Of a DNA stretch of 64,000 nt, positions 5,119-39,960 are shown piece after piece. Below the pieces are notes generated by a model. That model saw only the letters and a program-made list of their open reading frames with translations, did not search any database and was not told the DNA's origin. Source of the stretch: Octopus sinensis (lineage: Eukaryota); NCBI RefSeq assembly GCF_006345805.1, contig NC_043023.1, forward strand, positions 1 to 64,000, given 5' to 3'. The translations under genes and the position numbers were made by a program. Numbering within the stretch: position 1 is the first letter of the stretch; the number at the start of each line of letters is the position of its first letter.

Positions 5119-5150
5119 ATATATATATAATATATATATATATTATATAT
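4197..5150. repeat. (TA)n microsatellite field with a ~130-bp non-TA island at 4346-4479
   Basis: Direct inspection. Confidence 0.95.
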
Positions 5151-5288
5151 AGAGGGCATAATTATACATACATGCCAGGAGGCATTATATATACTTGCCA
5201 AACGCTAAGAGGGACAATCAGTCATTTCTACCAAAAATATTACTAATCCACCGAATGCAATTTTTCAAAGTAAGACATTTAAAAATAT

Positions 5289-5336
5289 AGGCCTGTATCA
5301 CAGTGATTTCATACTTACGTAATCATCAGCAGGCCT
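5289..5336 (-). ncRNA. Type I hammerhead ribozyme (480-bp unit, copy 1)
   Basis: Minus strand: aggccug-CUGAUGA-u uac guaa gua u-GAAA-ucac u guga-UA-caggccu; 7-bp stem I, intact core, near-palindromic stem III. Confidence 0.85.
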
Positions 5337-5766
5337 GAATGTATTATAAATAAACAACGACCCTGCCTCGCTTAAGCCGAACAGCTAACTGATCAACATC
5401 AACGAAGCACATGGGTGAGTTTATATATTACATCCGGGTGAATGGCAAACTTTTACAAAATTGCATTTCGGGAGAGGAAAAGTTTTTTCGGAATAAAAAT
5501 TTTGCAATTAAGGACAACTACTTAATAAGGAAAACTTAACAAGAAATTGTCAGGTAGATAGCGTAAAAACCTCATAAGAGAAAAAATTTCGAAAATAATT
5601 ATTCTTATTGAACATATTAATTTATATATAGAGGGCATAATTATACATACATGCCAGGAGGCATTATATACTTGCCAAACGCTAAGAGGGACAATCAGTC
5701 ATTTCTACCAAAAATATTACTAATCCCACCGAATGCAATTTTTCAAAGTAAGACATTTAAAAATAT

Positions 5767-5814
5767 AGGCCTGTATCACAGTGATTTCATACTTACGTAA
5801 TCATCAGCAGGCCT
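5767..5814 (-). ncRNA. Type I hammerhead ribozyme (480-bp unit, copy 2)
   Basis: Identical motif to 5289-5336. Confidence 0.85.
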
Positions 5815-6272
5815 GAATGTATTATAAATAAACAACGACCCTGCCTCGCTTAAGCCGAACAGCTAACTGATCAACATCAACGAAGCACATGGGTGAGTTT
5901 ATATATATTACATCCGGGTGAATGGCAAACTTTTACAAAATTGCATTTCGGGAGAGGAAAAGTTTTTTCGGAATAAAAATTTTGCAATTAAGGACAACTA
6001 CTTAATAAGGAAAACTTAACAAGAAATTGTCAGGTAGATAGCGTAAAAACCTCATAAGAGAAAAAATTCGAAAATAATTATTTCTTATTGAACATATTAA
6101 TTTATATATAGAGGGCATAATTATACATACATGCCAGGAGGCATTATATACTTGCCAAACGCTAAGAGGGACAATCAGTCATTTCTACCAATGTGCTTCG
6201 TTGATGTTGATCAGTTAGCTGTTCGGCTGGGGGCTTAAGCGAGGCAGGGTCGTTGTTTATTATAATACATTC

Positions 6273-6320
6273 AGGCCTGCTGATGATTACGTAAGTATGA
6301 AATCACTGTGATACAGGCCT
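6273..6320 (+). ncRNA. Type I hammerhead ribozyme (480-bp unit, copy 3)
   Basis: aggcctg CTGATGA ttacgtaagtat GAAA tcactgtga TA caggcct read directly on +. Confidence 0.85.
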
Positions 6321-6752
6321 ATATTTTTAAATGTCTTACTTTGAAAAATTGCATTCGTGGGATTAGTAATATTTTTGGTAGAAATGACTGATTGTCCCTC
6401 TTAGCGTTGGCAAGTATATATAATGCCTCCTGGCATGTATGTATAATTATGCCCTCTATATATAAATTAATATGTTCAATAAGAAATAATTATTTTCGAA
6501 ATTTTTTCTCTTATGAGGTTTTTACGCTATCTACCTGACAATTTCTTGTTAAGTTTTCCTTATTAAGTAGTTGTCCTTAATTGCAAAATTTTTATTCCGA
6601 AAAAACTTTTCCTCTCCCGAAATGCAATTTTGTAAAAGTTTGCCATTCACCCGGATGTAATATATATAAACTCACCCATGTGCTTCGTGATGTTGATCAG
6701 TTAGCTGTTCGGCTTAAGCGAGGCAGGGTCGTTGTTTATTTATAATACATTC

Positions 6753-6799
6753 AGGCCTGTGATGATTACGTAAGTATGAAATCACTGTGATACAGGCCT
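6753..6799 (+). ncRNA. Hammerhead copy 4, lacking core C3
   Basis: aggcctg-TGATGA...; single-base deletion (real or a read error). Confidence 0.55.
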
Positions 6800-7553
6800 A
6801 TATTTTTAAATGTCTACTTTGAAAAATTGCATTCGGTGGGATTAGTAATATTTTTGGTAGAAATGACTGATTGTCCCTCTTAGCGTTTGGCAAGTATATA
6901 TAATGCCTCCTGGCATGTATGTATAATTATGCCCTCTATATATAAATTAATATGTTCAATAAGAAATAATTATTTTCGAAATTTTTTCTCTTATGAGGTT
7001 TTTACGCTATCTACCTGACAATTTTGTTAAGTTTTCCTTATTAAGTAGTTGTCCTTAATTGCAAAATTTTTATATATATAATTATATATATATATATATA
7101 TAATATATATATATATATGTATGTATGTATAATATATATATATATAATATATATACGTATACGTACATATATACATACGTACATATATGTATGTATGGCA
7201 GTTATCATTTTCGTACCTTCCGAAGTTTGTTGAAATATTTCCTTGTCACTCTTATTTTACTCAGAGAAACAACACATGCAATATGGTATGAAATCTTTGT
7301 AACGATCATCACTGGAGACAGGGGAAATAAACAAATCAATGATGTCCATATTCCTACTAATCGACAATCTTTCTTATTTGACTAATATGAACACTTATCC
7401 TGACAGTGCGATTATATCTTAAGGTCATCGACAGAAAACGTGAGGCCAATCTTAATATCCATCTGGTATTTATTATATCGGCCTATTTTACCGAACCGCT
7501 AAGCAGTTAGAGCGTAAAAAGGTAACACCAGTTGTCAAGAAGAGACGAATACC

Positions 7554-13031: not shown

Positions 13032-13035
<4 letters not shown>
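12289..13035 (+). repeat. Diverged ~185-bp direct repeat (12289-12475 and 12851-13035; period ~560 bp)
   Basis: ctaaattttcggtatgtggtga...atctgtaatg occurs twice; the second copy runs into (TA)n. Confidence 0.85.
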
Positions 13036-13079
<44 letters not shown>

Positions 13080-13232
13080 TATATATATATTATATATATA
13101 TATATATATATCACAATCAAGGAACGGCCATAATAGGCCATTCACCCACTAGAAATAACAGCCAAAAGCTTTAACCGCAAAATAACATCAATTCCGTAAA
13201 CCAGGAGAAAATTAAAAAACATTTACCCTGTA

Positions 13233-13339
13233 ATTTCTTATACGATGCACCGTTTCGTCTACTGTTTAATGGTAAACTAACCTGATTAAATTAAATCAAG
13301 CCAATCTACCATAGGCCCTTAGATTCATCAGTAAGAAAT
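13233..13339 (-). ncRNA. Type I hammerhead ribozyme in the inverted 505-bp copy
   Basis: Reverse complement of atttctta CTGATGA atcta...tagac GAAA cggtgcatcg TA taagaaat. Confidence 0.85.
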
Positions 13340-13926
13340 AGCCAAGTCGGAACAGATATTTTTCACGAGGCATTCCCGTCCCTGCCTCGGCAATATCTGA
13401 CCTAAAATTTTCAAATCATCGTACTCGCGCCAAATTTATCGGCAGCAAATAAATATAAGCCGCCGATTCCATTACGGAATTAACCAGAAAATTCATAATT
13501 AATCAATATAGGGTGCCAAAAAAATTTTGTAGAATTTTTTTTTTTTGCCACCAGCGGCCTAGTGGGAAAAAATTTTGCGGTTATTTTGCGGTTAAAGCTT
13601 TTGGCTGTTATTTCTAGTGGGTGAATGGCCTATTATGGCCGTTCCTTGATTGTGATGTTGAACTTAAAAATGGTCTATGACTATTTAATTTTTTCCCACT
13701 AGGCCGCTGGTGGCAAAAAAAAAAAAAAAAAAAATTCTACAAAATTTTTTGCGACCCTATATTGATTAATTATGAATTTTCGGTTAATTCCGTAATGGAA
13801 TCGGCGGCTTATATTATTTGCTGCCGAAAAATTTGGCGCGAGTGCGATGATTTGAAAATTTTAGGTCAGATATTGCCGAGGCAGGGACGGGAATGCCTCG
13901 TGAAAAATATCTGTTCCAACTTGGCT

Positions 13927-14033
13927 ATTTCTTACTGATGAATCTAAGGGCCTATGGTAGATTGGCTTGATTTAATTTAATCAGGTTAGTTTACCATTAA
14001 ACAGTATAGGAAACGGTGCATCGTATAAGAAAT
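13927..14033 (+). ncRNA. Type I hammerhead ribozyme, first direct 505-bp copy
   Basis: 8-bp stem I atttctta/taagaaat; CTGATGA 13935-41; GAAA 14010-13; self-complementary stem III cggtgcatcg; GUA cleavage triplet; stem II base weakened (tatag variant). Confidence 0.75.
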
Positions 14034-14434
14034 TACAGGGTAAATGTTTTTTAATTTTCTCCTGGTTTACGGAATTGATGTTATTTTGCGGTTAAAGCTT
14101 TTGGCTGTTATTTCTAGTGGGTGAATGGCCTATTATGGCCGTTCCTTGATTGTGATGTTGAACTTAAAAATGGTCTATGACTATTTAATTTTTTCCCACT
14201 AGGCCGCTGGTGGCAAAAAAAAAAAAAAAAAAAAAAAAATTCTACAAAATTTTTTTGCCACCCTATATTGATTAATTATGAATTTTCTGGTTAATTCCGT
14301 AATGGAATCGGCGGCTTATATTTATTTGCTGCCGATAAATTTGGCGCGAGTGCGATGATTTGAAAATTTTAGGTCAGATATTGCCGAGGCAGGGACGGGA
14401 ATGCCTCGTGAAAAATATCTGTTCCGACTTGGCT

Positions 14435-15721
14435 AATTCTTACTGATGAATCTAAGGGCCTATGGTAGATTGGCTTGATTTAATTTAATCAGGTTAGTTT
14501 ACCATTAAACAGTATAGGAAACGGTGCATCGTATAAGAAATTACAGGGTAAATGTTTTTTAATTTTCTCCTGGTTTACGGAATTGATGTTATTTTGCGGT
14601 TAAAGATTTTGGCTGTTATTTCTAGTGGGTGAATGGCCTATTATGGCCGTTCCTTGATTGTGATGTTGAAATTAAAAATGGTCTATGACCATTTAATTTT
14701 TTCCCACTAGGCCGCTGGTGGCAAAAAAAAAAAAAAAAAAAATTCTACAAAATTTTTTTGCCACCCTATATTGATTAATTATGAATTTTCTGGTTAATTC
14801 CGTAATGGAATCGGCGGCTTATATTTTTTTGCTGCCGATAAATTTGGCGCGAGTGCGATGATTTGAAAATTTTAGGTCAGATATTGCCGAGGCAGGGACG
14901 GGAATGCCTCGTGAAAAATATCTGTTCCGACTTGGCTATTTCTTACTGATGAATCTAAGGGCCTATGGTAGATTGGCTTGATTTAATTTAATCAGGTTAG
15001 TTTACCATTAAACAGTATACGAAACGGTGCATCGTATAAGAAATTACAGGGTAAATGTTTTTTAATTTTCTCCTGGTTTACGGAATTGATGTTATTTTGC
15101 GGTTAAAGCTTTTGGCTGATATTTCTAGTGGGTGAATGGCCTATTATGGCCGTTCCTTGATTGTGATGTTGAACTTAAAAATGGTCTATGACTATTTAAT
15201 TTTTTCCCACTAGGCCGCTGGTGGCAAAAAAAAAAAAAAAAATTCTACAAAATTTTTTTGCCACCCTATATTGATTAATTATGAATTTTCTGGTTAATTC
15301 CGTAATGGAATCGGCGGCTTATATTTATTTGCTGCCGATAAATTTGGCGCGAGTGCGATGATTTGAAAATTTTAGGTCGGATATTGCCGAGGCAGGGACG
15401 GGAATGCCTCGTGAAAAATATCTGTTCCGACTTGGCTATTTCTTACTGATGAATCTAAGGGCCTATGGTAGATTGGCTTGATTTAATTTAATCAGGTTAG
15501 TTTACCATTAAACAGTATAGGAAACGGTGCATCGTATAAGAAATTACAGGGTAAATGTTTTTTAATTTTCTCCTGGTTACGGAATTGATGTTATTTTGCG
15601 GTTAAGCTTTTGGCTGTTATTTCTAGTGGGTGAATGGCCTATTATGGCCGTTCCTTTATTGTGATGTTGAACTTAAAAATGGTCTATGACTATTTAATTT
15701 TTTCCCACTAGGCCGCTGGTG

Positions 15722-15754
<33 letters not shown>

Positions 15755-18700
15755 CTACAAAATTTTTTTGGGACCCTATATTGATTAATTATCAATTTTC
15801 TGGTTAATTCCGTAATGGAATCGGCGGCTTATATTTATTTGCTGCCGAAAAATTTGGCGCGAGTGCGATTATTTGAAAATTTTAGGTCAGATATTGCCGA
15901 GGCAGGGACGGGAATGCCTCGTGAAAAATATCTGTTCCGACTTGGCTATTTCTTACTGATGAATCTAAGGGCCTATGGTAGATTGGCTTGATTTAATTTA
16001 ATCAGGTTAGTTTACCATTAAACAGTAGACGAAACGGTGCATCGTATAAGAAATTACAGGGTAAATGTTTTTTAATTTTCTCCTGGTTTACGGAATTGAT
16101 GTCATTTTGCGGTTAAAGCTTTTGGCTGTTATTTCTAGTGGGTGAATGGCCTATTATGGCCGTTCCTTGATTGTGATGTTGAACTTAAAAATGGTCTATG
16201 ACTATTTAATTTTTTCCCACTAGGCCGCTGGTGGCAAAAAAAAACAAAAAAAAAACAATTCTACAAAATTTTTTTGGCACCCTATATTGATTAATTATGA
16301 ATTTTCTGGTTAATTCCGTAATGGAATCGGCGGCTTATATTTATTTGCTGCCGATAAATTTGGCGCGAGTGCGATGATTTGAAAATTTTAGGTCACATAT
16401 TGCCGAGGCAGGGACGGGAATGCCTCGTGAAAAATATCTGTTCCGACTTAGCTATTTCTTACTGATGAATCTAAGGGCCTATGGTAGATTGGCTTGATTT
16501 AATTTAATCAGGTTAGTTTACCATTAAACAGTATAGGAAACGGTGCATCGTATAAGAAATTACAGGGTAAATGTTTTTTAATTTTCTCCTGGTTTACGGA
16601 ATTGATGTTATTTTGCGGTTAAAGCTTTTGGCTGTTATTTCTAGTGGGTGAATGGCCTATTATGGCCGTTCCTTGATTGTGATGTTGAACTTAAAAATGG
16701 TCTATGACTATTTAATTTTTTCCCACTAGGCCGCTGGTGGCAAAAAAAAAAAAAAAAAAAAAATTCTACAAAATTTTTTTGCGACCCTATATTGATTAAT
16801 TATGAATTTTCTGGTTAATTCCGTAATGGAATCGGCGGCTTATATTTATTTGCTGCCGATAAATTTGGCGCGAGTGCGATGATTTGAAAATTTTAGGTCA
16901 GATATTGCCGAGGCAGGGACGGGAATGCCTCGTGAAAAATATCTGTTCCAACTTGGCTATTTCTTACTGATGAATCTAAGGGCCTATGGTAGATTGGCTT
17001 GATTTAATTTAATCAGGTTAGTTTACCATTAAACAGTATACGAAACGGTGCATCGTATAAGAAATTACAGGGTAAATGTTTTTTAATTTTCTCCTGGTTT
17101 ACGGAATTGATGTTATTTTGCGGTTAAAGCTTTTGGCTGTTATTTCTAGTGGGTGAATGGCCTATTATGGCCGTTCCTTGATTGTGATGTTGAAATTAAA
17201 AATGGTCTATGACCATTTAATTTTTTCCCACTAGGCCGCTGGTGGCAAAAAAAAAAAAAAAAAAAAAAAAATTCTACAAAATTTTTTTGCCACCCTATAT
17301 TGATTAATTATGAATTTTCTGGTTAATTCCGTAATGGAATCGGCGGCTTATATTTATTTGCTGCCGATAAATTTGGCGCGAGTGCGATGATTTGAAAATT
17401 TTAGGTCAGATATTGCCGAGGCAGGGACGGGAATGCCTCGTGAAAAATATCTGTTCCGACTTGGCTATTTCTTACTGATGAATCTAAGGCCTATGGTAGA
17501 TTGGCTTGATTTAATTTAATCAGGTTAGTTTACCATTAACACAGTATATCGAAACGGTGCATCGTATAAGAAATTACAGGGTAAATGTTTTTTAATTTTT
17601 CCTGGTTTACGGAATTGATGTTATTTTGCGGTTTAAGCTTTTGGCTGTTATTTCTAGTGGGTGAATGGCCTATTATGGCCGTTCCTTGATTGTGATGTTG
17701 AACTTAAAAATGGTCTATGACTATTTAATTTTTTCCCACTAGGCCGCTGGTGGCAAAAAAAAAAAAAAAAAAAAAAAAATTCTACAAAATTTTTTGGCAC
17801 CCTATATTGATTAATTATGAATTTTCTGGTTAATTCCGTAATGGAATCGGCGGCTTATATTTATTTGCTGCCGATAAATTTGGCGCGAGTGCGATGATTT
17901 GAAAATTTTAGGTCAGATATTGCCGAGGCAGGGACGGGAATGCCTCGTGAAAAATATCTGTTCCGACTTGGCTATTTCTTACTGATGAATCTAAGGGCCT
18001 ATGGTAGTATTGGCTTGATTTAATTTAATCAGGTTAGTTTACCATTAAACAGTATAGGAAACGGTGCATCGTATAAGAAATTACAGGGTAAATGTTTTTT
18101 AATTTTCTCCTGGTTTACGGAATTGATGTTATTTTGCGGTTAAAGCTTTTGGCTGTTATTTCTAGTGGGTGAATGGCCTATTATGGCCGTTCCTTGATTG
18201 TGATGTTGAACTTAAAAATGGTCTATGACTATTAATTTTTTCCCACTAGGCCGCTGGTGGCAAAAAAAAAAAAAAAAAAAAAAAAAAATTCTACAAAATT
18301 TTTTTGCGACCCTATATTGATTAATTATCAATTTTCTGGTTAATTCCGTAATGGAATCGGCGGCGGCTTATTTATTTGCTGCCAAAAATTTGGCGCGAGT
18401 GCGATTATTTGAAAATTTAGGTCAGATATTGCCGAGGCAGGGACGGGAATGCTCGTGAAAAATATCTGTTCCGACTTGGCTATTTCTTACTGATGAATCT
18501 AAGGGCCTATGGTAGATTGGCTTGATTTAATTTAATCAGGTTAGTTTACCATTAAACAGTATAGGAAACGGTGCATCGTATAAGAAATTACAGGGTAAAT
18601 GTTTTTTAATTTTCTCCTGGTTTACGGAATTGATGTTATTTTGCGGTTAAAGCTTTTGGTTGTTATTTCTAGTGGGTGAATGGCCTATTATGGCCGTTCC

Positions 18701-21607
18701 TTGATTGTGATGTTGAACTTTAAAATGGTCTATGACTATTTAATTTTTTCTCACTAGGCCGCTGGTGGCAAAAAAAAAAAAAAAAAAATTCTACAAAATT
18801 TTTTTGCCACCCTATATTGATTAATTATGAATTTTCTGGTTAATTCCGTAATGGATTCGGCGGCTTATATTTATTTGCTGCCGATAAATTTGGCGCGAGT
18901 GCGATGATTTGAAAATTTTAGGTCGGATATTGCCGAGGCAGGGACGGGAATGCCTCGTGAAAAATATCTGTTCGACTTGGCTTATTCTTACTGATGAATC
19001 TAAGGGCCTATGGTAGATTGGCTTGATTTAATTTAATCAGGTTAGTTTACCATTAAACAGTATAGGACGGTGCATCGTATAAGAAATTACAGGGTAAATT
19101 TTTTTAATTTTCTCCTGGTTTACGGAATTGATGTTATTTTGCGGTTAAAGCTTTTGGCTGTTATTTCTAGTGGGTGAATGGCCTATTATGGCCGTTCCTT
19201 GATTGTGATGTTGAACTTTAAAATGGTCTATGACTATTTAATTTTTTCCTATTAGGCCGCTGGTGGCAAAAAAAAAAAAAAAAAAAAAAAAATTCTACAA
19301 AATTTTTTTGCCACCCTATATTGATTAATTATGAATTTTCTGGTTAATTCCGTAATGGAATCGGCGGCTTATATTTATTTGCTGCCGATAAATTTGGCGC
19401 GAGTGCGATGATTTGAAAATTTTAGGTCAGATATTGCCGAGGCAGGGACGGGAATGCCTCGTGAAAAATATCTGTTCCGACTTGGCTATTTCTTACTGAT
19501 GAATCTAAGGGCCTATGGTAGATTGGCTTGATTCAATTTAATCAGGTTAGTTTACCATTAAACAGTAGGACGAAACGGTGCATCGTATATGAAATTACAG
19601 GTAAATGTTTTTTGATTTCCTCCTCCTGGTTTACGGAATTGATGTTATTTTGCGGTTAAAGCTTTTGGCTGTTATTTCTAGTGGGTGAATGGCCTATTAT
19701 GGCCGTTCCTTGATTGTGATGTTGAACTTAAAATGGTCTATGACTATTTAATTTTTTCCCACTAGGCCGCTGGTGGCAAAAAAAACAAAAAAAAACAATT
19801 CTACAAAATATTTTTGGCACCCTATATTGATTAATTATGAATTTTCTGGTTAATTCCGTAATGGAATCGGCGGCTTATATTTATTTGCTGCCGATAAATT
19901 TGGCGCGAGTGCGATGATTTGAAAATTTTAGGTCAGATATTGCCGAGGCAGGACGGGAATGCCTCGTGAAAAATATCTGTTCCGACTTAGCTATCTTACT
20001 GATGATCTAAGGGCCTATGGTAGATTGGCTTGATTTAATTTATCAGGTAGTTTTACCATTAAACAGTAGACGATACGGTGCATCGTATAAGAAATTACAG
20101 GGTAAATGTGTTTTTAATTTTCTCCTGGTTTACGGAATTGATGTTATTCTGCGGTTAAAGCTTTTGCTGTTATTTCTAGTGGTGAATGGCCTATTATGGC
20201 CGTTCCTTGATTGTGATTTGAACTTGAAAATGGTCTATGACTATTTAATTTTTTCCCACTAGGCCGCTGGTGGCACAAAAAAAAAAAAAAAAAAAAATTC
20301 TACAAAATTTTTTTGCGACCCTATATTGATTAATTATGAATTTTCTGGTTAATTCCGTAATGGAATCGGCGGCTTATATTTATTTGCTGCCGATAAATTT
20401 GGCGCGAGTGCGATGATTTGAAAATTTTAGGTCAGATATTGCCGAGGCAAGGACGGGAATGCCTCGTGAAAAATATCTGTTCCGACTTGGCTATTTCTTA
20501 CTGATGAATCTAAGGGCCTATGGTAGATTGGCTTGATTTAATTTAATCAGGTTAGTTTACCATTAACAGTAGACGAAACGGTGCATCGTATAAGAAATTA
20601 CAGGGGTAATGTTTTTTAATTTTCTCCTGGTTTACGGAATTGATGTTATTTTGCGGTTAAAGCTTTTGGCTGTTATTTCTAGTGGGTGAATGGCCTATTA
20701 TGGCCGTTCCTTGATTGTGATGTTGAACTTAAAAATGGTCTATGACTATTTAATTTTTTCCCACTAGGCCGCTGGTGACAAAAAAAAAAAAAAAAAAAAA
20801 AAAAAATTCTACAAAATTTTTTTGCCACCCTATATTGATTAATTATGAATTTTCTGGTTAATTCCGTAATGGAATCGGCGGCTTATATTTATTTGCTGCC
20901 GATAAATTTGGCGCGAGTGCGATGATTTGAAAATTTTAGGTCAGATATTGCCGAGGCAGGGACGGAATGCCGCGTGAAAAATATCTTTTCCGACTTGGCT
21001 ATTTCTTACTGATGAATCTAAGGGCCTATGGTAGATTGGCTTGATTTAATTTAATCAGGTTAGTTTACCATTAAACAGTATAGGAAACGGTGCATCGTAT
21101 AAGAAATTACAGGGTAAATGTTTTTTAATTTTCTCCTGGTTTACGGAATTGATGTTATTTTGCGGTTTAAGCTTTTGGCTGTTATTTCTAGTGGGTGAAT
21201 GGCCTATTATGGCCGTTCCTTGATTGTGATGTTGAACTTTAAAATGTCTATGACTATTTAATTTTTTCTCACTAGGCCGCTGGTGGCAAAAAAAAAAAAA
21301 AAAAATTCTAGCAAAATTTTTTTGCCACCCTATATTGATTAATTATGATTTTCTGGTTAATTCCGTAATGGAATCGGCGGCTTATATTTATTTGCTGCCG
21401 ATAAATTTGGCGCGAGTGCGATGATTTGAAAATTTTAGGTCGGATATTGCCGAGGCAGGGACGGGAATGCCTCGTGAAAAATATCTGTTTCGACTTGGCT
21501 ATTTCTTACTGATGAATCTAAGGGCCTATGGTAGATTGGCTTGATTTAATTTAATCAGGTTAGTTTACCATTAAACAGTATAGGAAACGGTGCATCGTAT
21601 AAGAAAT
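14435..21607 (+). ncRNA. Remaining per-unit hammerhead copies of the 505-bp array (one ~107-nt motif per unit)
   Basis: Same motif in every unit; the copies with cores at 18991 and 19999 have a damaged GAAA. Confidence 0.75.
15948..16054 (+). ncRNA. Type I hammerhead ribozyme, best-paired 505-bp copy (fifth)
   Basis: Stem I 15948-55/16047-54; core 15956-62 and 16031-34; stem II tcta/taga plus a 19-bp hairpin 15975-16018; stem III 16035-44; predicted cleavage after 16046. Confidence 0.88.
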
Positions 21608-21666
21608 TACAGGGTAAATGTTTTTTAATTTTCTCCTGGTTTACGGAATTGATGTTATTTTGCGGT

Positions 21667-21766
21667 NNNNNNNNNNNNNNNNNNNNNNNNNNNNNNNNNN
21701 NNNNNNNNNNNNNNNNNNNNNNNNNNNNNNNNNNNNNNNNNNNNNNNNNNNNNNNNNNNNNNNNNN
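21667..21766. other. Assembly gap (100 N)
   Basis: Run of N; the true array length is unknown. Confidence 1.
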
Positions 21767-39129: not shown

Positions 39130-39960
39130 AAAACAAATTTGCGATTCATAAAACAAAGTGAAAAATTTTAAAAACCATTATAACTAATCAAACACCTTAA
39201 GCAAAAGGCAAACCACATAACCTAAAGAAATTATTAACAAAGGTAAGATTCAACATGAACAAACAGGATAACACATTCACAGTATCCAAGTGCAATGATA
39301 ACAGATGTGGAATGTGTCACTACATGCATATGGGTTGATCCATTAGAACAAAAAATGGACAGATTTTCACAAATGCAGATATGAACTGCAGAAGTAGAAA
39401 TTTGATCTACTGCATTAAATGTCCGAATTGTGAGGAATTATATATAGGCGAGACAGGGAGTGCATAATCGGAACGCTCACAAGTTCACAGACAACAAATC
39501 CAGAACACCAATGTTTGCCAAATTCCATTGAGCGAATGTATAGAGACATGTGGTCAGAAAACGTTTCTAATTTTTCCTTTCCACAAACTACATGACCCAA
39601 GTGAGGTTGGAAGAAAGATAAAAGAAAAACGGTTTATTAAAATGTTCAAACCTGTTCTGAACGGAAATAACAGCAATTATATAACAGCCAGTTATTGAGG
39701 TGGATTAAAAAATATAAACAAGTTGCAGAATATCAGTACGGCTGGCAGACTGTGATGTTTAAGAGCTTACGGATTGATCAAAAAAGTATTCGAAAAATTT
39801 GTCTGGTTGGAGCGTTCTAAGAGATACTAAAGTTATCAAGGACTGAACTGTCAGTTAAACACATTTGAAATCTGATGAGTTCACTGTGTATGAAAGCGCT
39901 AATTTTGTTAAAATACCATAAAAAAACGTGAAAACCAAACTGTTTTAACTTTATTCAACT
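39130..39960 (+). mobile_element. Penelope-like element 3' portion: Cys-rich linker, GIY-YIG endonuclease pseudogene and 3' region with HHR
   Basis: My translation of ~39205-39698: NLKKLLTKVRF...KCNDNRCGMC...MNCRSRNLIYCIKCPNCEELYIGETG..ER..VHRQQI...RKIKEKRFIKMFKPVLN, with in-frame stops. Confidence 0.88.
39867..39906 (+). ncRNA. Minimal hammerhead downstream of the PLE endonuclease
   Basis: gaaat CTGATGA gttcactgtgtat GAAA gcgc TA atttt; palindromic AGCGCT stem III; stem II weak. Confidence 0.7.

Follow-up and report, generated by a model that had tools for sequence, protein, structure and literature searches.

The question raised by this locus is whether a long hairpin set inside a hammerhead-like motif belongs to an RNA structure maintained by selection and, if so, by what route the repeat that carries it has spread. 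The window, by which we mean the whole stretch of DNA analysed (the first 64,000 nucleotides of Octopus sinensis contig NC_043023.1), contains this hairpin in a tandemly arranged repeat of approximately 490 bp. We consider it probable that the hairpin is a conserved arm extending stem II outwards and that the repeat is mobile as a self-cleaved, likely circular RNA copied by the RT of a Penelope-like element (PLE), presumably one of Neptune type. The earlier proposal that PLEs mobilize animal retrozymes rests, in the portions of the literature available, on co-occurrence and pLTR similarity.

The locus and its repeat

The genome, at 2.7 Gb, is rich in microsatellites, and an insertion of 8.5 kb occupies 13110-21666, where an inverted arm starting from (TA)n is followed by 16 head-to-tail units of approximately 500 bp each:

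13033..13111, no strand: (TA)n microsatellite, the insertion target, left end
13110..21666, no strand: whole insertion with inverted and tandem arms, the right end lost in an assembly gap (N 21667-21766)
13110..13575 (end approximate), minus strand: inverted 5'-truncated arm, terminating at the fixed end E1 and holding one hammerhead motif
13580..21666, plus strand: tandem arm of 16 hammerhead units, core starts 13935 to 21509

The repeat has a GC content of 35%, no open frame of 120 aa was found inside the array (two such frames overlap its ends) and an RT plus GIY-YIG open frame is not in the element; the ~490-bp repeat is a non-autonomous element. Its copies are dispersed over many contigs, and the genome holds 2,680 exact stem III 20-mers and at least 3,600 hairpin arms, the latter comprising 796 of the U form, counted by exact pattern, and 2,804 of the A forms, counted by degenerate pattern, with 0 for the reversed-pattern controls. 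Within the array, TAGAC and GAAA are both intact in two of the 16 units, namely those at 15956 (the unit with the hairpin under study) and 20501, the other 14 being altered at the stem II base or in GAAA, and the A-runs of the ggtggc hairpin are 17-29 long as against a mode of 7 elsewhere. By appearance the array belongs to an active family but has itself expanded locally and begun to decay. A TATAG variant of the stem II base, not typical of dispersed copies, is now present in 8 of the 16 array units (13935-21509).

Hammerhead anatomy

The unit at 15956 has the CUGANGA core, GAAA and UH round a three-way junction and the open stem I that characterize a type I hammerhead, laid out as follows:

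15948..15955, plus strand: stem I 5' strand, two-sided changes in 4 of 8 pairs
15956..15962, plus strand: hammerhead core CUGAUGA, N7 being 15960 and U, A, C or G across loci
15963..15967, plus strand: proximal stem II 5' strand, A10.1 first
15968..15974, plus strand: internal loop 5' side, GGCYU nearly invariant, first two bases paired in older subfamilies
15975..15993, plus strand: long hairpin 5' arm, 19-bp helix with 16000-16018
15994..15999, plus strand: apical loop UAAUUU, no shared variants in about 141 loci
16000..16018, plus strand: long hairpin 3' arm, 19-bp helix with 15975-15993
16019..16025, plus strand: internal loop 3' side, UAAA nearly invariant
16026..16030, plus strand: proximal stem II 3' strand, C11.1 in this copy and U in most loci
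16031..16034, plus strand: core GAAA
16035..16044, plus strand: stem III of 3 bp with a palindromic UGCA loop, self-complementary, a predicted dimer site
16045..16046, plus strand: U16.1-A17, predicted cleavage after 16046 (GUA)
16047..16054, plus strand: stem I 3' strand

The 19-bp pairing of 15975-93 with 16000-18, on which the initial annotation was built, is exact and consists of 14 Watson-Crick and 5 G-U pairs closing the loop UAAUUU. The accompanying idea of an unusually long stem II stands in so far as the hairpin forms the outer arm of stem II, but not as a continuous helix, since an internal loop (7x7 here, 5x5 in older subfamilies) separates it from the proximal stem II. Similarly, the absence of mismatches is correct for this copy but not for the family, in which it is a minority allele (796 versus 2,804 copies); of 136 loci, 103 have A.A at the pair 15979/16014 and 26 have U-A, and the A form at the position of 15979 accounts for 66-96% of depth in four public sequencing runs. 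The insert in stem II measures 68 nt, unlike the usual short stem II with a loop contacting stem I. The first pair of the proximal stem II is A.C in this copy, and among 135 loci the pair 10.1-11.1 is A-U in 74, A.C in 52, U.U in 7 and something else in 2, the canonical G-C never being found; U.U at this position has precedent in passages of PMC3088659 and PMC7229834. Rfam gave 0 matches at gathering over the whole window, and at E<=10 over 15400-16600 there were 11 weak matches, none of them a hammerhead and all taken as chance.

In the ensemble fold the hairpin has a pairing probability of 0.998 and the proximal stem II is in register at 0.68, the hairpin raising the weak proximal stem into register, and this is the basis for reading it as a clamp. 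At about even odds, then, the job of the hairpin would be structural: it may fold first and clamp the core halves, 68 nt apart, so that the weak proximal stem II of 4-7 bp can form, and may at the same time present an invariant internal loop replacing loop II. Stem III has a probability of 0.01 in the monomer, its 12-nt palindrome gives a two-copy self-dimer of -18.9 kcal/mol, and the active fold in the monomer lies 4 kcal/mol above the MFE. A predicted competing fold pairs the core CUGAU with the stem III 3' strand and is not conserved, because N7 varies.

Two further observations concern other copies and positions. GUC is found in place of GUA at the cleavage triplet in 21 genomic copies (loci L081-L101) belonging to at least two lineages, and a motif scan gave an isolated hammerhead-like match, CTGATGA ... 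GAAA GCGC TA, at window position 39872 on the plus strand.

Folding and strand

That the whole unit folds better on the plus strand, as had been claimed, applies to raw energy only (-148 versus -110 and -148 versus -104 kcal/mol, plus versus minus, in two natural units), and this gap tracks the skew in G and T. With 40 dinucleotide shuffles on the two units the z-scores are equal on both strands, the plus/minus values being -4.8/-4.4 and -4.7/-4.2 for linear and -5.7/-6.2 and -5.2/-4.4 for circular folding, so that at the level of the unit the very outcome which the initial annotation had set against itself, no strand asymmetry in the z-score, is what was found. The 131-nt ribozyme region has a folding z of -4.5 on the plus and -1.0 on the minus strand, and among 11 sliding 100-nt windows the largest strand gap, by a wide margin, is that of 15960-16059 (-5.4 versus -0.8), followed by -3.2 versus -1.0. 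The strand asymmetry of folding is local to the hairpin.

The remaining structural proposals had mixed fates. An off-conformation by aatcta/tagatt is possible as a pairing but has an ensemble probability of 0.0, and 105 of 134 loci lack its sixth pair. In the list of other hairpins three arms had been misread for this unit, the actual letters being gctgccgaa, ttatttga and gggacc; across the family aatggcc/ggccgtt holds up, while cgaggca/tgcctcg has three pairs broken in 35-38 of about 125 loci and atcggcggc/gctgccgat shows A.C in 37 of 115 loci. The long-range helices 16088-100/16309-21 and 16134-42/16216-24 mostly hold up across loci.

Conservation across loci

Conservation was assessed on 144 loci. 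DNA searches and exact patterns yielded 86 of them, with a mean identity of 95%, and degenerate patterns placing no constraint on the hairpin the other 58, with a mean of 86%. A few loci probably represent duplications in the assembly, and a cell stands for a locus and not for an independent event. The invariance of the core is in part a product of the search, whose patterns included letters of the core. Many unrelated columns look paired in an RNA rich in G and U, and the test of the hairpin therefore rests on a weighted null. Over 18 hairpin pairs (mismatch position excluded) nine alleles are common to at least three of the 144 loci, and all nine are switches between Watson-Crick and G-U on the plus strand, none leading to A-C, where the element's own substitution spectrum would keep pairing in 39% (P~2e-4). 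The claim that the hairpin was selected at the RNA level on the strand of the ribozyme is borne out by these nine pairing-preserving changes. Rare cells in the hairpin break pairing in 10 of 13 cases, some of which are perhaps sequencing errors.

In a set of 24 haplotypes chosen by hand, 10 pairs of the hairpin do not vary, 8 have one-sided changes and 0 have two-sided changes. In the same set two-sided changes occur in four of the eight pairs of stem I and in one pair of the proximal stem II, stem III having one-sided changes only, and the ribozyme cells are paired in 92% as against 29-43% when slid. The change in the proximal stem II is A-U/G-C, and its G form has 1,252 exact genomic copies. 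Compensatory pairs are thus located in stem I and the proximal stem II, not in the hairpin, and the conclusion supported for the latter is that it is a plus-strand RNA helix conserved through the history of the family, in which selection tolerates G-U pairs without prescribing their number. Taken by itself, the hairpin is a modest structural variant, though a well-supported one. As support, a blind covariation scan proved uninformative, since T/C and G/A columns with no relation to one another also scored as paired.

Insertion ends and the priming signature

The insertions of this family end at two fixed places on the plus strand:

16165..16177, plus strand: fixed 3' end E1, ~131 nt past the cleavage site, putative first priming site
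16280..16298, plus strand: fixed 3' end E2, ~237 nt past the cleavage site (usual short A-run units), putative second priming site

The E1-E2 'tail' is thus ~106 nt. In a census of the 144 loci, 12 were excluded (fetched edge or gap) and one was unclassified, and of the 132 loci with both ends in view 86 are inverted. Among these inverted insertions 80 combine E1 with E2, one has E1 twice, 0 have E2 twice and five have other ends, and the 45 direct insertions end at E1 in 25 cases and at E2 in 20, a rule true of young and older subfamilies. Because the fixed insertion ends are 3' on the plus strand, plus is the strand of the template RNA, independently of folding. (TA)n adjoins 207 of 217 3' ends and 26 of 47 5' ends, the 5' ends scatter, and insertion ends are never at the cleavage site; target-site duplications would be masked by the (TA)n flanks. 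Between the two arms of a locus 51 of 4,889 diagnostic cells are discordant, versus 32% between random loci, units within arrays are mixed at 83 of 4,510 cells (32 of those from one double insertion), and array runs of 10-13 units occur.

The combination of E1 and E2 ends, inverted truncated arm, one-sided tail and (TA)n is the Penelope-like 'tail' signature. Tandem and inverted copies, a tail at one end and a (TA)n bias are PLE traits in the available text of Craig et al. 2021 (bioRxiv 2021.04.23.441226), and in parts of Frangieh et al. 2024 (PMC11167929) both strands are cut and then extended by a PLE protein, whose RT starts at two internal sites bounding the tail. The scars of insertion carry this signature in sharp form, with both arms from one template lineage.

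As for the enzyme, 150 of 5,029 GIY-YIG candidates in the genome were scored, and five PLE loci have intact frames of 775-883 aa with RT, C-terminal GIY-YIG and a Neptune-like CxxxxCxxC linker; three of three loci whose 3' flanks were inspected run into (TA)n. The repeat has no similarity to these five loci (probably 2-3 families, of the 5,029 candidates), the best E being 0.6. The loci themselves (L251:1421-3763, L252, L253, L255 and L254) are young intact Penelope-like elements, with a 479-aa upstream frame in L252. ATTGG and TGACGTC motifs are repeated in the 3' region of the intact elements, and downstream of these repeats lies what we take to be a TATA-like box.

Related hammerhead repeats

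Fourteen other hammerhead stem II sequences were found in the scanned loci, a sample biased to (TA)n-rich sites, and of these 4 are short (12-22 nt) and 10 long (51-61 nt), the long ones forming about five groups by eye. Since stem II inserts of 50-70 nt recur, the present family included, in about six repeat groups of the genome and the present one is invisible to Rfam, censuses of ribozymes may miss a class. In one of the long groups the reverse strand folds better, and a plus-strand bias is therefore not general. One long-stem-II family shares the E1-E2 region (score 116 versus a maximum of 71.5 in 200 shuffles), its upstream part being borderline.

Type I hammerhead groups with long stem II lie beside (TA)n at L190, L214, L254, L244, L098, L108, L117 and L251. 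At L251:5351-6771 there is a distant relative of 535 bp with a 51-nt stem II insert, which has CACTAGGCC..GGTG and the E2 end motif (ACCCT.TATT) in common with the repeat and in which the helix enclosing E1 appears, by eye, to be kept with changed letters. An unrelated hammerhead repeat of ~480 bp, with a short stem II, a U.U first pair and a GUA site, occupies 5143-7073 of the window; its arms are inverted, (TA)n flanks it, and its 3' ends are of two kinds separated by about 130 nt. In the window AAATTTGGCGCGAGT is found at both 15850-15864 and 16356-16370. Although two CpGs are included, its 12 positions from TTTGGCGCG hardly vary across about 122 loci, and TTTGGCGCG is present again in the distant family next to L251; the site resembles an E2F site and may be an internal promoter element.

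Proposed cycle and alternative explanations

In the cycle that we favour, a tandem array would be transcribed on the plus strand, neighbouring hammerheads would pair their palindromic stems III and cut after GUA, and the ~490-nt monomers so freed would be circularized by a host ligase. A PLE protein would nick (TA)n DNA and prime at E1 and E2, one per DNA strand, and its RT would run round the circle to give tandem arms and the tail-out inverted orientation. Cleavage, ligation and circles are modelled on passages of PMC4209133 and PMC7229834, the latter (Cervera & de la Pena 2020) describing the retrozyme cycle. The non-canonical 10.1-11.1 pair, the active fold above the MFE, the lack of similarity to the five PLE loci compared and a tail of ~106 nt, not 30-40, are points against this reading, and in vitro 8 of 9 predicted retrozymes were inactive in the available part of Li et al. 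(bioRxiv 2026.07.22.740005).

The hairpin could conceivably have little to do with catalysis and be a protein platform (for the PLE protein, or for dsRNA-binding or small-RNA machinery) inserted in loop II. The UAAUUU loop without a shared variant and the 10 of 19 pairs that never vary would suit such a role, as would the finding of 0 copies with the same stem III and a stem II of 10-40 nt, the recurrence of long inserts in other families and the need of the anole PLE hammerhead for protein, described in part of PMC11167929. The putative priming sites are however 130-240 nt downstream, away from the hairpin, the other long inserts share no evident sequence, and the short-stem-II family at 5143-7073 has the same insertion anatomy, so that mobility needs no long arm; we consider a platform unlikely.

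Equally unlikely, in our judgement, is a template in the form of an uncleaved linear multimer instead of a circle, with a ribozyme that is marginal or a trimmer of transcripts only. Such a template would fit the insertion ends, which never coincide with the cleavage site, and the non-canonical stem II base, and uncleaved RNA is the dominant in vitro substrate of the anole PLE in the same part of PMC11167929. Against it stand the homogeneity within arrays for lineage letters, the runs of 10-13 units and the covarying ribozyme helices, which together call for repeated passage through one functional unit.

Somewhat less probable still is a reading in which the G-U pairs are not states tolerated by selection but for the most part traces that A-to-I editing left in the duplex and reverse transcription made permanent. 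Seven of the nine G-U positions have G where A gives a Watson-Crick pair (six switching A/G and one fixed), but G>A and U>C reversions to Watson-Crick have also been fixed. Substitutions of A>G outnumber T>C by 40 to 28 on terminal branches (per-site P 0.001), the internal ones being 42 and 44 (P 0.05), although no branch has more than three A>G. A>G is least frequent after a 5' G, whereas the enriched 3' neighbour is G and invertebrate ADARs, according to part of PMC5625713, prefer A. A>G places number 22 in one run that may be RNA and 7 in another for which RNA was not assumed; two loose contig ends have a hyper-edited look, and a genome search for one of their variants gave no match. What these runs provide, however, is contigs, the run types are guesses, and the source individuals or organisms are different ones. 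The contigs, covering 4 of the 20 runs listed, have the same alleles in three organisms. Support for an ADAR origin of the G-U pairs is mixed and the case weak, and the duplex would exist as plus-strand RNA either way.

A more far-reaching idea, which we rate as very improbable, is that long-armed hammerheads are editing switches, in which an arm-docked ADAR would convert the basal A.C of stem II, present in 52 of 135 loci, to I-C, mimicking G-C; if true, this would turn on cleavage, circles and two-site Penelope-type copying only in editing-rich cells. No A>G at 15963 was seen among the 40 rows listed from public run contigs.

Finally, a DNA satellite devoid of RNA function, whose inverted repeats would be due to chance or to the DNA level, is hardly credible and largely refuted for the family, given shared hairpin states that are G-U and never A-C, compensatory ribozyme pairs, polarised fixed 3' ends and dispersal over many contigs, though the whole-unit z-scores have no strand bias and the locally expanded, decaying array may owe its recent history to such a process.

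Comparison with known systems

On its testable features the repeat is a non-LTR retrozyme, for which self-cleavage is predicted: it is non-coding, has a GC content below 50% and exists in many dispersed copies. With the metazoan non-LTR retrozymes, as they appear in the available portions of PMC7229834 and Li et al. 2026 (bioRxiv 10.64898/2026.07.22.740005), it shares low-GC non-coding tandem repeats, one type I hammerhead per unit with a short palindromic stem III, thousands of dispersed copies, a structured unit and the presence of PLEs in the same genome. The unit of 490 bp is above the 150-450 bp of PMC7229834 and within the 51-972 bp of Li et al. 2026. It differs from them in its 68-nt stem II insert, as against 4-5 bp and a short loop, in A-U or A.C at 10.1-11.1 as against G-C, and in its two-site fixed 3' ends with inverted arms, of which those portions of the two papers hold no account. 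In the literature searched there is likewise no account of an octopus or cephalopod retrozyme, of a long stem II or of two-site priming, and precedents may exist, for instance in the supplement of PMC7229834. The dimer pairing of stem III resembles that of the dimer-cleaving animal hammerheads treated in parts of PMC4209133 and PMC7229834.

With regard to stem II, a typical helix II has 4-5 bp and 'long' ones 6-8 bp in the passages at hand of PMC13725137 and PMC3088659. The mycovirus type I hammerheads with 'long helix II' (PMC13725137, in part) agree with the present one in topology, in a helix II above 4-5 bp and in having no obvious classical loop-loop contact, but consist of 6-8 bp and a tetraloop, where we find 4-7 bp, an internal loop and 19 further pairs in a genomic repeat. 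For PLE hammerheads a helix II of 6-8 bp is described in the text available.

The insertion anatomy is by comparison that of Neptune-type PLEs and Poseidon PAc, for which the available parts of Craig et al. 2021, PMC11167929 and PMC4209133 likewise give partial tandems with an inverted 5'-truncated arm, a tail at one end only, AT-rich or (TA)n targets and a type I hammerhead upstream of internal start sites. Unlike PLEs, the repeat is without an ORF and has a full stem III in place of the minimal motif, and its tail is ~106 nt versus 30-40 (7 or more in the PAc start region, a value not compared). What is new here is the long-armed hammerhead together with direct genomic evidence of two-site PLE-type priming, in which the scars name two priming sites and a candidate enzyme class and make the origin of inverted and tandem PLE copies testable with an RNA of 490 nt.
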